Shown in pieces: positions 14,766-36,599 of a stretch of DNA of 42,114 nt. Position 1 is the first letter of the stretch, and the number at the start of each line of letters is the position of its first letter. This stretch comes from Reclinomonas americana ATCC 50394 (taxonomy: Eukaryota). The notes under the pieces were generated by a model that was given only the letters and a program-made list of their open reading frames with translations, was not told where the DNA came from and did not search any database. The stretch is from the NCBI GenBank assembly GCA_048213135.1, contig PS015828.1:1-42114 (forward strand), read 5' to 3'. The translations under genes were made by a program, and so were the position numbers.

Positions 14766-15924
14766 TCACTGGTCATTGACCAGCTCGACGGAGAGCAGAC
14801 CCTGCGGCTTGTACGGGTATGGGAGCTTGCCGCCCGTGTTCTGGTGCATGGTCACGCCGAGATTGATCAGGATCTGCCACACCTTCTTGATGTCGTCGGG
14901 GTGTCCGTGAATGCAGCCGTGCGAGTTGGGCTGCGCGCACGCGTACACCGTGAGCACAGCAGCGACAAAACAACAAAGTGGGACTGGACGAGTGCGTACC
15001 ATGGGCATCGAGGGATTCCAGTTGGCCCACTCGCCCGTGTGCAGCAGAATGCCGTCGCGAATGTCAGAGATCACAATGGCAGCGTTGCCCTTCAGGCCCT
15101 GCACGGCGCGATTGATGGGGTACGGGCCGTAGGAGACTGGATCGGGTTCGGGCGAGTTCAAGTCAAACGACGACAGGCCAGTGGGCGTCGAGCCATCACC
15201 AGCAAACTGCGCACAAGAGATGAGTTCGTCGTGCCAGACGCTCATCCACACACATGCTCGCAGTACCTGATTGAGCGCATCGCCGTCCTTGTCGTTCTGC
15301 CCATGCGTGCGCACAATGAACTGGTGCAGAATGTTCATCTGCGAGTCATACAGCGTCGCCACCGTCTCCACCGACCGGTTGTGGAACACCGGCACGTGTA
15401 CCTTGTACAGGTAACCAGGCAGAATGGTGCCATCGTCCACGTATCCGTCATCCATGTGCAAATCGAGGAGCTTTTGCGCCGTGTAGCACTCAAACACGCC
15501 CGTCACCTGCAAGCCGTTTCCAATCTGGAACTGACGCACCGCAGTCTACAGGAAGGCATGAGTGAGAAGGAGAGAGAGTGTGTGCTGAGCGAGTGAGTGA
15601 GAGACCTCGGTGATTGTGTCATACTGCGAGGTGACATTGAGCGGAGGCGACATGGACTGCACAAACGGCGAGCGCAGCAACAGGTTCTGCGCAATGGTGA
15701 CGTCATCACCGTGCAGTGGGAGCGGGAAGGTAAAGGTCAACGCGCGGAAAAACGGCGGTGGAAACACCGGTGTCGCACTCGCACAATCCGTCTTCTGTGC
15801 GTGTGTGTGTGAGTGGTCATGACACGCGCTCTCTCTTAGTGTGTGTGGTGGTGCGCGCAACAGCGGTGACAGTGTGTGCCAACACGGCGCACACAAGCAG
15901 CGCGAGAAGCACTGCGCTTTTCAT
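14766..15924 (-). CDS. Secreted peptidoglycan-binding (PG_binding_1) plus L,D-transpeptidase (YkuD) protein
   Basis: Signal peptide MKSAVLLALLVCAVLAHTVTA; PG-binding-like GDDVTIAQNLL..YDTITETAVRQFQIGNGLQVTG; YkuD catalytic motif GILLHTGEW..PNSHGCIH with His and Cys intact. Contains several GT-AG introns. Confidence 0.85.
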
Positions 15925-20200: not shown

Positions 20201-23200
20201 CAGATGGTGGCACCGGCCACTGAAGGTGCGTTGCAAATCCGCAGGTCATGTCTCTGTGACGTAGCCCTTGTGTCGTAACACTTTTTGTGTGGGTGCATCA
20301 GGCCTGTTCGATCGCGCCTTCTGGGAGGACAAGGATATGGTGGTGAATGCACTGGACAACATCCAGGCTCGCCTGTACGTCGACGACCGCTGCGTGCAGT
20401 TCCGCAAGCCGCTCGTTGAGGCCGGCACGGAGGCCGTCAAGTGCAACTGGTGTGTGCATGTATTTTCCTGATGTTTTTCCGTTATCCTTCGCTCACTAAG
20501 CCTTGGTGTGCACAGCTGTGTGAGTACACTGGCTGTTTGGGAGTGTGTCCAGCGTGTCGTGGCTGGCAGTGTCTCACACCACGTTTTTGTGTCCGCTGTA
20601 CAGATTGTGATTCCGGGCTTCTCGGTCAACTACGGCTTCCATCGCGAGATTGACCCGCCAAAGGCCAAGAAGTGCACTGTGACCAACTTCCCTGTGCGTA
20701 ACTTGCTTGTGTAGGTGTGTAACTTGATTGTGCGTTGCATTCTGACCTTCGGTGTTGTCTTGTGCGCAGTACGTGCGTCATTGAATAACCCTTGTACCTT
20801 TATTACCAAGCGAATGACTCACGTTTGTTTTTTCCCCTCCTTGCTCTTGATTGCATACAGCTGGTGAGTTGGCCCATGTGTTGCGCGATGGTCCTGTCAC
20901 GTGTTGCTTAGTTAACCCTTCGAATCGCAGATCGAGCACTGCATCCAGTACGCGCGCGAGATCACGTTCCAGAAGCTGTTTGTGGACTGCCCGGAGGCTG
21001 TGGCCGAGTACCGCAACAACCCGCAGGCCTTCCTGGACAAGGTCAAGGAGATGCCGGAGACGGAGAAAGTCGATGTTGCGTTGAGGCGATCTGTATGTCG
21101 GAGTCGACGGGAAGATACTGATGTGGTGGTGCGTCGCAGGTTGCCCGCAAGCTGGCTGGCATTCTGAGCGCCGAGAACCGCTGCGCCTCTCTGGAGGACT
21201 GCGTGGCGTGGGCGCGCAACCTGTACGAGGAGGAGTTTGTGCACTCGGCGTTCCAGTGGCACTCGCTGTACCCTCGTGATGCCAAGAACCGCGACGGTGA
21301 GTCTTGTGCCGGCATTGCCTGCCATGTGAGTTGATGACTTGCTGACTCGGGGCATTATTGCAGGCACGCCGTTCTGGGGTGGCGTCAAGACTTACCCGAC
21401 GGAACAGCGATTCGACCCGGCAAACCCGCTGCACGTGCAGTTCCTGGTGCGCGACAATGTATTGTTGGCTTGTTGCAGTTGCCCTGCTCATCCCCGGTTG
21501 GTGCACAGGTGACGGCGACTGCGCTGCGCGCCAAGACTCTCGGCATTGCTGTGCCGTCGGAGTTCCGTCTGGATAGCCGCCGTGGAAAGGCGCTGGTGCT
21601 GGAGATCGCCTCGCGCGTCAACGTGAAGGCGTTCAGCAACTCGGCGGTTTGTAAAGCGTGTGGTGGTGGCGCGTGTGTCGAGTTCCTCATACCGTTGGTG
21701 AATGCGATGAGCAGAAGGCATCGACCGACGGTGAGGACGAGTCGAACGTGTCGCTGGTGCAGGAGTTCGACCCGAACGCCGTGCTGAGCTCGCTCCCGTC
21801 GCCGAGCGACATCTCGCCGTCGGTGACCGCCGATGAGTTCGAGAAGGACAACGACCTCAACTACCACGTGGACTTCCTGATGGCCGTGTCCAACATTCGT
21901 GCCATCATGTACCGCATCGACACGGTGGACCGCCTGAAGATCAAGCTCGTTGCCGGTCGTGTGATTCCGGCCATTGTGACGAGCACGGCTCTGATCTGCG
22001 GCTACGCGAGCTTTGAGATGCTGAAGGTGTGTGTGGATTTTCGGATGAGATTGCACTGAACTTGTCGGTTGGCTGACTGCTGGGTGCAGATCTGGTCTGG
22101 CCGGCCAAACTCGGCGATTCGCGAGTCGACGGTCAACCTCGGCACGCTGATGTTCACCGTGCAGGAGCCGATGGAGGCGCCGAAGGTGAGAGTGTCTATT
22201 GTGTGTGCCTGCTTCCTTCGGAGCGGTAGGGTGATGACTGATTGACGTGCTTTGTTCAACGTACAGTGGAGCTACAAGGGTGCGAGTGGCGACCACACGT
22301 TCACGCTGTGGGACAGCGTGCATGTGGACGCGCGTGGTCTGACGCTGAAGCAGGTTTGTCGTTGCTGTTGCTCTCCTCGCTGTTGCTCCTTGTCTCTGTC
22401 GCTCTCCTCGCTGTTGCTCTGTGTCTCTATCGCTCTCTTCGCTGCTGCTCTGTGTCTCTGTCGCTCTCTTCGCTGCTGCTCTGTGTCTCTGTCACACTCC
22501 TCGCGGTTACTCTGTGTCTTGTGTCGCTCTCCTCGCTGCTGCTCTGTGTCTGTGTCGCTCTCCTCGCTGTTGCTCCGTGTCTCTGTCGCTCTTCTCGCGG
22601 TTGCTCTGTGTCTCTGTCGCCCTTCTCGCTGTTGCTCTGTGTCTGTGTCGCTCTCCTTGCGGTTGCTCTGTGTCTATCGCTCTCTTCGCGGGTGCTCTGT
22701 GTCTCTGTCGCTCTCTTCGCTGTTGCATTGTGTCTGTCGCTCTTCTCGCTGTTGCTCTGTGTCTGTGTCGCTCTCCTTGCAGTTGCTCCGTGTCTCTGTC
22801 GCTCTCCTCGCTGGGCGTACTGCACACAGGCGTCCTCACCAATGCTATTCATTCCTGGCAGTTCTTGGACAAGATGAAGGCGGAGCAGGAGCTGAACATC
22901 GAGACAATCTCGGTGGTGCGACAGGACTACGTGGTGTGGTTTGGCGCTCGCGGGGCGCTGGACAAGCCGCTGCTTGAGCTCGTGGAGAATATCGTGAAGA
23001 AGAACAAGCTGCACGTGGACCCGTCTGGCATTATCGAGTTCCTGGTGTCGGCACCGTTGCGTAGTGGCCGTCTGCACCGCGCTTGGTGAATCGATTTTGT
23101 CTCACTCACGCGCGCGTGGTGATTTTACTGCAGTGATGGCTCCGTGGTGAAGAAGCTGGATCAGGAGGGCAAGGAGTACGAGGAGGACGGACCGGAGCAT

Positions 23201-23569: not shown

Positions 23570-26500
23570 TCATCGGTCCAACATGGTGGGCCATGCAGGC
23601 GCCCGAGCCCCGTCCATTTCCGAGGCGAGTTGGTTGGACGCGAGGAGTGTGTGCTGAGAACCACCGACTGTTGCTCCACAGTCGGGACAGCGGCTGGTTT
23701 GCATGGCCCCGCCGCACTCGCCGATAAAGTATGGATGTCCGTTGGGGCATTTGAACCAGTGTCCCGCCGCCGACGAACCACCCAGCTCCTGTCGCATGGC
23801 GGCCACGATCATCTGTCGTTCCTCCTCGGACAAGCGATTTGCGATGGCTGCAAGAGCCTCCAGGCCTTCGTACCTCGGGTTCAACTCTCGCAGCTGCGAG
23901 AAAGTCGTCAGCGACTATCATGATATCACCTGTACACAAGAAAGCAAAACGCGAGCAGACGGACGCAACAAAACGAAGCAGTCGCTTTGCTTTGTCAACG
24001 TTGGCATGCTGTCCAGACGACTCCATGACAATCCAGTGATGCAGGGCGCGACAACGGTGCTCCACCATCACTTGATCGTCAGCCGCCACACGCTGCAGCC
24101 GAAGCAGGTGGTGAGTGAGCGACAAGTGCTCGCCGAAATGAACACCGCTACACACCTCGTACTCTGTGGCGGCATCGACGCGACGGTTCGCGCGTTGATA
24201 CGCCTCGGCCAGTTGTAGGCGTGCATCGTGGTGGCTCGGAAGCATGTCCAGAACGCGTTTGAAGTTTTTGATGGCCGCCTTCAAGTTGTTTCTGCACACC
24301 TCGCTGTTATTTTCAAGCCGCCTACTCTCACACATTCCGTGAACTGTGATGCGCAACGAATCCAATGCCGCAAAGCCGGCTGCCATACAACGCTTGCTGT
24401 TGAGACGACGCTTGACTTTGTCAATGTCGTCCAGCGCGTGCCGAATCGAGGCTGAATACCGAAGTGTGCGACGCACCGATGCCTGCGGTCACCAGCATCT
24501 GAGACTAAAGTAGCCGTGGGCACGAGCAAAAGAGGCACATTGGCACGCAACTCGGCAGCTCGGACACTTTGGGAATCCGATTGCCTTGTGCTCCGACGCA
24601 TCGGGATCGTCCTGTTGCAATCCTTTCATGTACTCGTCGAGGCCGGTAACCTCGAAGACGTGATGACAGTCGACAAGCTCGACAAACAGTGCGTCTCCAT
24701 CAAACTGCATCCATGCGGACAGGTGTCAGCATAACACGAAAACAAGCGTCGCAGACGACAACCGCGTACCTCAGAGAGAGGCATCATGTGAATCGGCTCC
24801 TCCATGTCACCGTTACAGATGCGACACGCTCGCGGACATGGTTCGCCACACACACCAATACACGTATGACCACACTCAAGGACCTCCTGCGATGGTACGT
24901 GTCAAACCGGATGAAAGCATAGAGGATCGATTGGTATATCTATAGCATACGAACCGCACAGGGACGCATGCATGGCGGTCGATCACACGGGTCACTGCAC
25001 AGTTGGTGACAGGCATGGTGTTCGCAGTGGTACGCACACGGTTCGCCGCATGGCACGCAGATCTCGCCGCAGGCCTTCTGGCATCGCGAGTGCACACAGA
25101 AGTTTTCACATGGCAGAGCGCATGGCGGGCAGTCGTCGCAGCATTTCTGTCACTCGGTGTGAGATGCTTACTTACAAAAGCGCGCCCGACAGCGCAAGAA
25201 GCTAATAACGCAACCGACTGACACTTGTGGCCACACAGAAGGTACCGCTTGCACGGCTCAGTGCACGGTACATGCTGACGACCACCATGACACTTGCCAC
25301 ACGTCCCCGCACACGAATGACCGCATCGCTCCAGCACATGTCGACAGGGCTCACGACACTCGATTTTCTCGAGTGGCACTGAGCACGCCACGTAGGCCGT
25401 GTGTCCACACGGAAGCAGTCGGCGCACGTTGTGCCCGCAAGGGGCGCACTCCTCGCTGCACTTGCTCTGCATGATAATGACTCACTCTGAGCACTGCACG
25501 CTGCGAGCAGCGACTGCCAACCGCTACTGCACAGACTGCTGAAACACACCTGGCACTGATGTCCGCAGGAGAGGATCTTCGGACACGAATGCTGGCACTT
25601 GTCGAATTCTGCTGGGTCAAGGTGGCACGGCACCAGCTGGGTGTGTCCGCACGAAGGAATGACCTTGTCGACCAGTTCCATACACTTCCCCTCAATTACA
25701 GCCTTTGCATTCCAGCATGGCACAGTGAGACTTGGGAGTGTATGTGCTGTGAGAAGAGAGGGGAAACGACGCCGACGATCGAAACAGCCACAAATTCACC
25801 TGTGTTCAGCCGGACAACTGCGCGGAGTCACAGTCTTTTCCTTCGTGCACGGATAGGACTCGCACGATGCAGCGTGGCAGCACAGCGTGCACATGTGACC
25901 ACATTCTCGTCGCCCACCGCACGGTAACTTGCAGCCGCCGAGAATCACGTCATCAAAATCACGCGATTTGCTGACCGACGTGACGTTCTCTGCAACACGA
26001 ATGTGAGCAAAAAGCACGCATGGGGCACCCTACAAACAAACGACATGTTCCAAACCTGGATGGTGGTGACATTGCAGAGACAGCGCAGGTCCACACGCAT
26101 GTTGCTCGTCAAATTCACGGAATACTTGCCGCCACAGACCGCAACCCTGAGACTCAGACAACAACTTGCGGTTGCCGATCACGTACATGGCTGCGTTTGC
26201 GCCGACAACAAGAATGAGAACACCTCCATCGCAAGATACTGACTGCAGACTGTACCATGTCGGGCGCGAGAGAGCGCGACACAGATGCGGTTCTCGATCT
26301 TGACGAATCCAGTGACGCCTTCCATGTTGGATCGAACAAGCGACAACAGGATAATATCGTTCTCTTCGCCCTGGTAATCGTCGATCGTGGACACACGAAC
26401 ATGTTGAATGTCAGACGTGCCGGGAGTGTTCGCACGATGGCGGCGGAGCGCATCTTTGAGCTCCATCACTTGTCCCGTATCTGTGACACCAGCACACTTA

Positions 26501-33457: not shown

Positions 33458-36400
33458 TTACAGCACCGGCGTGACGGCGACAGCCATGGACTCCTGTGCG
33501 TGACTGGGTGAGAATAGCGTGCGTGAGCAGGAGTTGATGTGGCTGTTTGCGCAACGATGGCACACTCGTCGGTTCCGCGCTGTGGCACAATGTGAGTCAT
33601 GAAGCGAAAGACAAGGAGAGACAAAAAAAGGCAGAGTCGACTTACCCGAATGCGGAAGAAACCGTCCTCGCCCCAGGCAGTCTGCGCGAGATGGCAGTGA
33701 GAAGTGGGGGAGCAAGAGGCAGCATGTAAGAGAGAGAGAGAGACAAACCCCTGTGTTGTTGTGGACATTTGCGACGATGAACGCAAAAGAAATGTGAGCA
33801 GACGGGGCATCTTCAGCTGTCTGTCAAGCGAGCAACTCACCCCTGCAATCACACGAGTGAGACATCGAACAACAAGCACACATTGTGGACAAAGAGACAC
33901 TCACCAGCTGTTCTTGACCTTCCAGAACTGCGACGATGACGAGGAGACTCGTGTTAGTCAAGAAGGGAAAAGGATACATGGCGAAGCGAGCAGTGACTAA
34001 ACCTTCACGCCATCGGATGTGGTTCCGTATCCGACGATTACCACGACTGCAAAGCAAAGAGAGAGGAGTAAGAGGAAGGGGGATAGTCATGCAGGCACGA
34101 TGGCACGTCCGCAAACCGTCTGCGCAAATGACGACACGTGAGTGGTGCGCAGCATGTCAATCAATAACGAAAGACGCAACGATTGGTCAGCTGGAACGGG
34201 TTGAAGGTCACCAGGTGCGACACTGCGGTGTGCGAGTACACGCCACCCTGCCAGGCAAGCTTCAGTCCATCAAACGACACACTCTAACCATCGACAACGC
34301 CACACACCTTGTAGTTGTGCAGATCGGGGTACACCTCGAACGAGACAGCAATCGGGCCATTCGCCACCAACTCCTCCATCATGTTCAGCTCCGTGGCCGC
34401 CCCGTAGTAGCCACCAATGTAGTGGTAGTCGCTGTGCAACGGAGCATGTCAGAGGGAGGGAGAGAGTGACGAAAAAAGCGTGGCGAAAGGGAACGAAACG
34501 AGGTCCAGTGCAGGCGCGGGTTGGAGCAGCGCTTCGAGCACGACACCTACAGCCATGGATGGTGTGAGAGGTGACAGAAGCGGAGATCTCTCACATCGTG
34601 CGTCCTACACACACCTCCGTGGCAACATACGGGAAGCAGCTCTCCTCCACGTGTCCGAAGTCGTGGCCGTACTGCGCGGTCGCACGAAGGGAGTGCAGTG
34701 AGCGACGACAAAATCACACAGGGTGACAAGAAACCCGACCTTGCCAGCAGCCAGGTACGGGAAGCCGCCTGCGTCAACACATTTCGTCAGTCTGGTGCAT
34801 TCGGCACAAGAAGAGAGGTGACAACACACACCGTCGCAGCCGTGCGAGTAGACAGAGCACGAGACAATGTTCTGAGTACTGAGGATGACCTACACAAATA
34901 CGCGCGCACGTGCGCACGTGAGCAAAGCACTCAAGTCATACACTTCAAGCAAGGCAGGCAGGCAAACGCACCGTGTTCGTGTTGTTGGAGAGAATGCGCA
35001 GGCGAGCCTCGAGTGTGGCCGCCGACGCAAAGGCGTAGCAACTGCCGCATTGCTGTGTGGTGCACGGTGATGCGCGCGCATGAGCAAGTCAGAGCGGGGG
35101 AGTAAGGGAGGGAGGGAGGGAGGGAAAGAGCGCGACTCACTCCCTGGTTGCTGTTGGCAAGACGAGAAAAAGAAGCAGATGAGCTCTCAGCGTGAGAGAG
35201 ACAGCAATCGCGCGACAGGCACGCACCGGATGGGCGACACGTAGCTCACCTGTACAAAATAACACAATCAGCACGTGAGAGACTGCCATAGCACCCCCTG
35301 CATTTCGTGTGCATCACGCAACTCCATTGACATTGGTCCAGTCCCACGAGTCCGGCAGCGTCGACGACAGCGACGTGGCCGCGTTCTCCGCCAACTCCGG
35401 CTTCTGCGGCTTGGTGACAGCGGCGGCCAACTCCTGGCGCGCATACGAGCCACCGGCACGGCGCTCCATCTGAACAAGGCAGCGTGGTGAGCTCAAGTCC
35501 ACAGCTGTGATCCGAGTCACGCTTCACGCAACATCGCCAATGGTCAACCCGAGGTGCTCGTCGTAGGTAGTGGCCGTCCACAGGCTCTGCGCCTTGTTGA
35601 TGGCGTCCACAAACTCAAAATCGTGCTCGTACCTATGCACACGCCATGTGAGTCGACGACATGCACGCGCGAGGCATCACGAAACACAACTTGAGCTGGG
35701 CGCGGAGCGGGTCGACCACGGCCAAGTCGAGGCTCGTGCGGAGCGGCACCTTGGGCGTCTCCGGCGCGCTCTGCGTCTTGATGCCAAAGTAGCAGCCCCA
35801 GTTGCCCGGCTGCAAGTGCCACGAGACGAATGAGCGACACAACCAGTGTGTCTTCTTCAAACGGCCTCACCGCATACTGCTCTCCATCGTTATGGTACCA
35901 CCCCGGCAGCGTCTCGGAGCACACAGAGGTCACATGGCCACTCGGATCGGTCACCCACTTGGAGAAGGCGAAGAAACGACGACCGCCGACCTTGACTGCA
36001 CTCACGCTTGAGAACAATGACGCAAAACACAATGACAAGCGAGAAAACAAACCGTCAAACGACCTGTCATGAGGGGGTTTACATAACAACAGAAGGTGAT
36101 TAGTGAGTGTGCAGTGCGCGCCTGCTTTTGTTACACGAAACATGGAATAAATCATGGTCCAGAAGCCCTGATTGCCAGCACTGTCTGTGACCTTGTCGGG
36201 GTAATCCAGTGTGACTGTGTACGTGTTCTCCACCTATTGTACACGCATCCACTGAGCACACACACAGTGGAGAAGAACAAACAAGCGCGCGCGCAACAGT
36301 GAAGGGATTGGTGCAGTTGATGTTGTCACGAGTGAAGCCGGCCGGACCCAAGTGGAAGGTCCACGTGCCACGCACCTGTGACACGCGTGCACAGTGAGTT

Positions 36401-36599
36401 GCAGTCTGTGAGAGAGACAGACAAAGAGAGACGCAACGTCCTCGTACATGCAGTTTGCGGGGGTCTGTGACTGCGTGTGTGAGCGAAAAAGATGATCACA
36501 AGTGCGTGCATGACACGCAACATCAGCCACCACTGCATACGGAGCAGCAGCGACACAAAACACCGCGAGGAACACGAGAAGAAGCGCGCAAAACTTCAT
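33458..36599 (-). CDS. CTSC: Cathepsin C (dipeptidyl peptidase I), papain family with exclusion domain
   Basis: Signal peptide, then [129 protein letters not shown]. The model requires microexons. Confidence 0.95.

Follow-up and report, generated by a model that had tools for sequence, protein, structure and literature searches.

A gene on the minus strand of a 42,114-nucleotide (nt) stretch of DNA from Reclinomonas americana ATCC 50394 (contig PS015828.1, positions 1 to 42,114; the window) is predicted to encode a homolog of cathepsin C (dipeptidyl peptidase I, DPPI), and the codon for its catalytic histidine is completed by an exon of three nucleotides, ACG. We consider it very probable that the interval 34180-34047 comprises two ordinary short spliceosomal introns parted by a genuine 3-nt exon, and is not one intron. 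The histidine of the Cys-His dyad would then exist only in an mRNA that contains this microexon. The microexon is probably real and constitutively included.

A probable three-nucleotide exon that completes the histidine codon

The elements of the region are listed in the order of transcription, with coordinates in the window. Here and below a slash marks a splice junction.

34181..34247, minus strand: exon 18, 67 nt, ending in CAG CTG ACC AAT C, which encodes LTN and the first base of the histidine codon (from the sequence and the gene model)
34120..34180, minus strand: intron 18, 61 nt, GTTGCG...GCGCAG, with a branch-like CTCAC at 34142-34138 whose A lies 19 nt from the 3' end; donor score 6.0, acceptor score 7.6
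34117..34119, minus strand: the 3-nt microexon ACG, providing bases 2 and 3 of the histidine codon (C/AC) and base 1 of the next valine codon (G/TC)
34047..34116, minus strand: intron 19, 70 nt, GTTTGC...TTGCAG, with a branch-like CTTAC at 34072-34068 whose A lies 22 nt from the 3' end; donor score 2.5, acceptor score 6.4
34003..34046, minus strand: exon 20, 44 nt, starting TC GTG GTA ATC GTC GGA TAC GGA and encoding (V)VVIVGYGTTSDGVK (from the sequence, the model and the alignment)

The borders of the microexon are canonical (gcgcag/ACG/gtttgc), and each flanking intron is complete, with its own branch-like motif. Joining AAT C to ACG and to TC GTG gives Asn-His-Val-Val, and the product contains the motif peptide LTNHVVVIVGYG within the longer reading ...FQLTNHVVVIVGYG. 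When ACG is skipped the reading becomes ...FQLTNLVVIVGYG, which is in frame and free of stops, and has no histidine. The junction words expected in transcripts are AATCACGTCGTG for inclusion and AATCTCGTG for skipping. A first-pass annotation of the window had described this anatomy on the minus strand, with AAT C, 61 nt, ACG, 70 nt and TC GTG GTA in succession, and every element matches the sequence and the coordinates. It had also given the product of skipping as LTNLVVIVGYG, in frame and without the histidine, and the same product emerges from our enumeration of splice models.

The encoded protein and its active site

The coding region was modeled by hand from the sequence. Its extent and two of its active-site codons are as follows.

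33458..36599, minus strand: whole cathepsin C / DPPI coding region (hand model)
35038..35040, minus strand: codon of the catalytic cysteine, the second Cys of QCGSC, in exon 12 (model, Pfam and alignment; coordinate counted by hand)
33910..33912, minus strand: asparagine codon of KNSW, in exon 21 (model and alignment; coordinate counted by hand); we take this residue to be the third member of the papain-type triad

The model has 26 exons and 25 introns, and its coding sequence of 1443 nt translates into 480 amino acids (aa) followed by the stop codon TAA. All 25 introns are of the GT-AG type with lengths of 57-90 nt, and on average there is one for every 58 nt of coding sequence. The N-terminus is hydrophobic and signal-like. 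The model reads ...VVAD/TPANC, so that the mature N-terminal aspartate of DTPANC directly follows the signal peptide, and this ADTP start depends on the use of the acceptor at 36464 and not that at 36470. The N-terminus is present in six homologs, all of which read ADTP. At 36465-36470 (minus strand) there are two acceptor AGs 6 nt apart, cgcag/TCACAG/ACC; the upstream AG would add Ser-Gln between the aspartate and TPANC, shifting the conserved start.

Six exons were compared singly with Pfam. Exon 6 alone matches CathepsinC_exc (PF08773; E=3.7e-08, 34.1 bits, cut-off 27) and exon 12 alone matches Peptidase_C1 (E=6.4e-05, 23.6 bits, cut-off 20.7). Exon 17 reached 15.3 bits, under the cut-off, and three of the six gave no match in this single-exon scan, as expected for pieces of 22-49 aa. 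A protein search with exon 17 found 11 proteins among 33 candidates, the best being 80% identical over 41 aa. Ten of these are unnamed or labeled only as transcriptome or 'cathepsin C'; the other one comes from a spider and is a named hypothetical protein.

The spliced model is collinear from end to end with eight of the homologs, at 45.4-54.1% identity and with no gap at any exon junction or microexon, and the alignment covers their whole exclusion domain. All eight carry PF08773; the three that were not aligned (P0004, P0005 and P0008) lack it. At the junction of exons 6 and 7 (35860-35885, minus strand) the model has four extra residues, EQYA/PG, compared with most homologs, which are either a real insertion or the result of a slightly misplaced splice site. 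Introns 4 and 5 (35996-36141, minus strand) total 135 nt and contain no in-frame stop, so that retention of both would keep the frame open; a 229-aa stop-to-stop frame at 35544-36233 reflects this open frame.

The pattern TNH, five residues, G[YW]G is found in ten of the 11 homologs, the exception being a 131-aa fragment that does not have it. Homolog P0001, 54% identical to the window model, matches human DPPI (3pdf_A) with E=2e-136, and in that alignment 3pdf_A reads feltnhavllvgyg at the histidine site, the motif given in the first-pass annotation. Exon 18 alone, as a 22-aa query, aligns weakly with residues 361-379 of rat DPPI (1jqp_A), the alignment ending in ...FNPFELTN (E=1.3). From these alignments we assign the histidine after LTN to the catalytic histidine position of the family. 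In the model, the catalytic histidine five residues before G[YW]G is present only if 34119-34117 is included.

Comparison with the mammalian enzymes (human 3pdf_A and rat 1jqp_A) is indirect for the window protein, being made through P0001. The order of domains is the same, exclusion domain and then papain-like domain, and the two share the DTPANC start, QCGSC, FNPF(E/Q)LTNH followed by five residues and GYG, and KNSWG..WGE.G(Y/F)FRI. In contrast, the structure of the gene is far from that of mammalian DPPI, with its 26 exons and a histidine codon split by a 3-nt exon. The Pfam domains, the alignment of homologs and the match of a homolog to solved DPPI all bear out the earlier naming of the gene as cathepsin C. 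The gene product would be a secreted or lysosomal cathepsin C / DPPI, with a predicted dipeptidyl-aminopeptidase activity.

Alternative splice models and the likelihood of coincidence

We enumerated all splice models of the segment 34247-34003 with up to two GT/GC-AG introns of at least 20 nt each, which gave 55 distinct peptides that are in frame and free of stops. These were scored with a hidden Markov model (HMM) built from the eight homologs only, the window sequence being left out. The model with the microexon ranks first with 43.9 bits, compared with 37.0 bits for the next and 32.0 bits for the product of skipping. The runner-up uses a GC donor at 34177 without ACG; it reads NRF and has no histidine. 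Provision of the histidine by some other exon structure, which the first-pass annotation had named among the findings that would overturn its proposal, was considered and rejected. The other peptides with a histidine at or near the site still use ACG or add 3-7 residues, and score at most 34.3 bits; no other GT/GC-AG model restores the histidine as well.

The chance of such an exon arising by coincidence was estimated from 20000 shuffles of the 134-nt interval that preserved dinucleotide composition, with the outer 6 nt fixed. An internal AG/AYN/GT with both introns at least 40 nt long was found in 99 of the 20000, and AG/AYG/GT, which also gives the valine of the homologs, in 13. We infer from the splice anatomy, from the fit to the homologs and from the improbability of coincidence that ACG is included in the mRNA.

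Intron length provides a separate comparison. Twenty introns of the gene do not border the 3-nt exon or the putative 2-nt exons described below; their lengths are 57-88 nt, a range into which introns 18 and 19 also fall. Four introns read by eye in a neighboring UBA1 gene are of 80, 65, 83 and 76 nt. A merged intron of 134 nt would be an outlier in length relative to the 20 unaffected introns.

Other predicted tiny exons in the gene

Four further exons of 11 nt or less are present in the model.

36053..36063, minus strand: 11-nt exon in the exclusion domain (...IYSMSFDVKV...), best splice model by HMM
35141..35150, minus strand: 10-nt exon CAACCAGGGA encoding (R)NQG, just before QCGSC, best splice model by HMM
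33841..33842, minus strand: first putative 2-nt exon, GG, between introns of 62 nt and 90 nt (from model ranking)
33749..33750, minus strand: second putative 2-nt exon, GG, followed by an intron of 67 nt (from model ranking)

The model with the 11-nt exon is the best of its set, with 85.9 bits compared with 81.4 bits for the next (4863 peptides enumerated, 4797 scored), and that with the 10-nt exon is the best of 825 peptides, with 63.9 compared with 56.0 bits. The motif RNQGQCGSC is present in the model with its NQG provided by the 10-nt exon, and in the family alignment the glutamine six residues before the catalytic cysteine falls in that exon. This glutamine of NQG is presumably that of the oxyanion hole.

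Exon 21 has AGC TG and exon 24 has ACT GCC TGG, and four bases are needed between them for Trp-Gly. Two GG exons give TG/GG/GG/ACT, the W-G-T of KNSWGTAWGE, joining ...KNSW to G-TAWGEDG, and two consecutive 2-nt exons would be the only canonical way to supply the four bases. In an enumeration of 14160 models with up to three introns, from which 592 peptides were scored, this model is at the top, narrowly, with 32.4 bits compared with 30.7 and 26.2 bits. The 30.7-bit alternative requires an intron of 30 nt, and the 26.2-bit alternative combines a 13-nt exon with a GC-AG intron of 148 nt and inserts three residues. The arrangement of two successive 2-nt exons is thus likely but unproven. In a search of the literature the phrase '2-nt exon' occurred in a single paper, which was unrelated, 'two-nucleotide exon' did not occur at all, and no report of a nuclear 2-nt exon was found. 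The possible tandem pair is the most interesting loose end of the gene.

Compared by position only, four of the five tiny exons are placed at active-site motifs. Skipping of the 11-nt exon, the 10-nt exon or either 2-nt exon would shift the reading frame in all four cases. Because these four exons cannot be skipped in frame, inclusion would be the default, with the spliceosome taking in tiny exons routinely, and the tiny exons look like constitutive architecture in this genome.

Splice signals and the mode of inclusion

Splice sites were scored by a leave-one-out matrix made from the 25 donors and 25 acceptors of the gene itself. The acceptor of the microexon scores 7.6 (gene mean 5.1, standard deviation 2.9). 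Its donor GTTTGC, that of intron 19, scores 2.5 (mean 5.1, standard deviation 2.0), and seven other donors score 3.2 or less; the donor is weakish, not exceptional. A CTNAY motif is located 13-30 nt from the 3' end in 20 of the 25 introns, and the CTCAC type is very regular.

The unusual donor hexamer of intron 18, GTTGCG, is used at seven of the 25 introns (1, 2, 3, 8, 9, 18 and 25) and, in the UBA1 gene, by one intron or more (20046). The window contains 71 sites of this hexamer, compared with 44.7 ± 6.3 expected, and none of 100 shuffles reaches 71. The excess appears to be a property of the 5' splice sites of the organism. An origin of the introns as introners was considered and discarded, an all-against-all blastn comparison of the 25 introns giving only matches of 8-23 nt, most of them in CT-rich stretches of low complexity or in the donor hexamer that introns have in common. 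An RNA structure bridging the splice sites was likewise set aside. The fold of the microexon region is unremarkable, with a minimum free energy of -33.5 kcal/mol (z = 0.30) that 127 of 200 shuffled sequences equal or better.

Introns of 57-90 nt that each carry a 5' site, a branch-like CTNAY and a 3' site of their own would be recognized by intron definition. Only 3 nt separate the 3' site of intron 18 from the 5' site of intron 19, and complexes bound to both should clash. Because the facing sites are so close, introns 18 and 19 are probably removed one after the other. Whichever left first, the remaining splice site would then adjoin an exon of normal length. This can be likened to recursive splicing, except that three bases are kept. 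We infer the stepwise removal of the introns from this arrangement of sites, and the constitutive use of the exon from the four other tiny exons that the gene needs; the microexon is most likely a by-product of the extreme density of introns, not a regulatory device.

Probable constitutive inclusion and its alternatives

Several observations weigh against constitutive inclusion. The splice-site matrix was derived from no more than 25 sites, taken from the hand-made model itself, and is therefore partly circular. The donor of intron 19 lies 1.3 standard deviations below the gene mean, and because of its score of 2.5 some skipping is conceivable. Pyrimidines occupy 16 of the last 20 bases before the distal acceptor, that of intron 19, compared with 11 of 20 before the proximal one, and the stronger distal tract could favor a skip of the whole 134 nt. 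The 2-nt exons, which we have used as supporting context, lead their alternatives only narrowly. Lastly, the gene's own protein or transcript was not among the collection searched. None of the 11 matches to exon 17 is identical to the window protein, and a search with the UBA1 gene (five matches among 167 candidates, the best 55% identical over a conserved stretch) did not find the window's own UBA1 protein.

The comparatively weak donor and the strongly pyrimidine-rich distal acceptor would also suit a regulated cassette exon, in which inclusion yields active protease, skipping in frame yields a stable dead protein that lacks the histidine, and the ratio of the two sets the activity. The length of 3 nt preserves the frame on skipping, and the resulting peptide is free of stops; because that length is a multiple of three, the product of skipping would escape nonsense-mediated decay. 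Alternatively spliced 3-bp microexons do exist, for example in human RPS24 (PMC12207440). However, the acceptor of the microexon is above average for the gene and its donor is not an outlier, and no special RNA structure surrounds the exon. If the 3' site is chosen by scanning from the branch-like CTCAC in intron 18, the proximal AG should be met first. The frameshifts that would follow skipping of the other four tiny exons point to efficient inclusion as the default. The sequence singles out nothing in the 3-nt exon for regulation, and we regard a switch, possible by virtue of the frame-preserving length but unsupported, as unlikely. The first-pass annotation had suggested both that the histidine depends on the microexon and that skipping could act as an on/off switch for the protease. 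The first part stands, the catalytic histidine position being spelled only by way of ACG, but the second is unsupported, as nothing in the sequence indicates regulated skipping.

A more elaborate form of splicing-level control can be imagined, in which all of the active-site motifs are stitched together by ultra-short exons, with the glutamine from the 10-nt exon, the histidine from the 3-nt exon and the Asn-Ser-Trp-Gly turn from the two 2-nt exons. Skipping of the 3-nt exon could yield a stable dead subunit because it alone can be skipped in frame, and such a subunit might damp or poison the oligomeric enzyme. The chance of this is slim. If it were true, no tandem exons that we have found mentioned in the literature would be shorter than the 2-nt pair.

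The interval might instead be a single intron of 134 nt, the protein reading LTNLVVIVGYG as a non-catalytic protease homolog and AG-ACG-GT being coincidental. Inactive members of the papain family are known in general, and the skipped product is indeed in frame and free of stops. Yet the coincidence is rare in the shuffled sequences, whether or not the valine is demanded, and the peptide scores 11.9 bits lower, with one residue of spacing lost. The other active-site motifs, NQG, QCGSC and KNSWG, are intact, as is DTPANC, with which the exclusion domain starts. The interval is longer than any of the 20 unaffected introns, and a branch-like motif precedes the internal AG. We therefore judge a single intron to be very unlikely. 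The tiny exons might also be the residue of insertions and deletions in a decayed pseudogene or a faulty assembly. This draft sequence contains N runs, and it is unusual for a single gene to have five exons no longer than 11 nt. Yet all 25 introns are GT-AG and of 57-90 nt, and the spliced frame runs through 480 codons without a stop, beginning like a signal peptide and finishing at TAA, with no internal break in the alignment to eight homologs. Decay at random would have spoiled the splice signals, which are perfect on either side of each tiny exon. We judge this reading to be extremely improbable.

Comparison with known microexons

Exons of such shortness are rare but well established as a class, and those of 1-3 nt have been documented in plants, fungi and animals. 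The present exon therefore opens no new kind of biology.

In Arabidopsis, APC11 has a constitutive 1-nt exon that was deduced from homology and later confirmed in transcripts; before that report the smallest exon known to be alternatively spliced was 3 nt and the smallest constitutive exon 6 nt (PMC4674806). A survey of ten plant species revealed 2398 microexons no longer than 15 nt, the majority of which had escaped annotation (PMC8831610), and a peptidase M1 gene was reported to have adjacent exons of 5 and 12 nt (PMC8831610, PMC11096116). The window gene shares with APC11 and the plant microexons ultra-short internal exons between canonical introns, missed by annotation and needed for the correct protein, and adjacent microexons, putative in the window gene, occur in both. 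However, the plant microexons have been verified by RNA sequencing, reverse transcription PCR or reporters and are conserved across many species, whereas the exon in the window is deduced from homology in one genome. Plant introns are also longer than those of the window gene, which are uniformly 57-90 nt.

A very close parallel is provided by the P450 gene CYP621A of Fusarium. There a 1-nt exon was deduced from homology and later confirmed with archived (SRA) reads, having been concealed in an 'intron' of 139 nt that stood out from a median of 56 nt (PMC12940212). Both cases have short introns, an over-long 'intron' hiding a tiny exon (AG-N-GT in Fusarium), completion of a codon within a conserved motif, and identification by homology. 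They differ in that the Fusarium exon completes a structural glycine of a PKG motif and its omission shifts the frame, whereas the window exon completes a catalytic histidine and its omission keeps the frame.

The regulation of neuronal microexons depends on factors that are specific to animals. In human RPS24, microexons of 3, 18 and 22 bp are alternatively spliced (PMC12207440). This gene and the neuronal microexon programs (PMC12207440, PMC7821500) show that 3-nt frame-preserving exons are able to act as regulated cassettes, and they are the model behind the idea of a switch. In those systems regulation has been demonstrated, whereas the exon in the window is known from sequence alone.

In the literature search the terms 'microexon' and 'cathepsin C' occurred together in one full text, on a nematode genome and outside its title and abstract, and no paper linking the two was found. 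A search for microexon together with catalytic-residue terms found no paper with 'microexon' among those listed. If confirmed in cDNA, the window gene would offer a clear-cut case of a catalytic residue that is absent until a 3-nt exon has been spliced in. An automatic annotation pipeline would almost certainly describe the protease as truncated or as lacking its histidine. Introns interrupt the coding sequence once per 58 nt on average, and five of the exons, a possible 2+2-nt tandem among them, measure 11 nt at most; the gene should be a useful test case for intron-definition spliceosomes faced with splice sites 2-3 nt apart, and for gene finders that take account of microexons.

Other features of the window

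The neighboring open reading frames are those of ordinary eukaryotic genes. Six of the eight scanned have Pfam matches, which are to the Arf family, JAB/MPN, an AAA_11 helicase, a ZNFX1 domain, TPR and a PhoD-like phosphatase. The UBA1 gene used for comparison above has the following position.

~17.7-23.2 kb, plus strand: UBA1-type E1 gene

At 20450-20603 (plus strand) this gene has a possible 4-nt exon, CTGT (20516-20519), between introns of 66 and 84 nt; the model that includes it scores 109.8 bits, compared with 108.9 bits for a single 150-nt intron without a microexon.

No RNA family of the Rfam type matches the window at gathering thresholds. The frames at 14769-15545 (259 aa) and 24879-25481 (201 aa), both on the minus strand, have no Pfam match at E<=0.001. 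The second of these is rich in cysteine and histidine and adjoins the ZNFX1-like helicase frames. Runs of N, marking gaps in the draft assembly, occur at ~4.95-5.1, 6.55-6.65 and 32.29-32.31 kb and elsewhere. The window is also abundant in (GA)n, (CA)n and CT-rich microsatellites, which appear as frames reading RERE, SLSL and HTHT.

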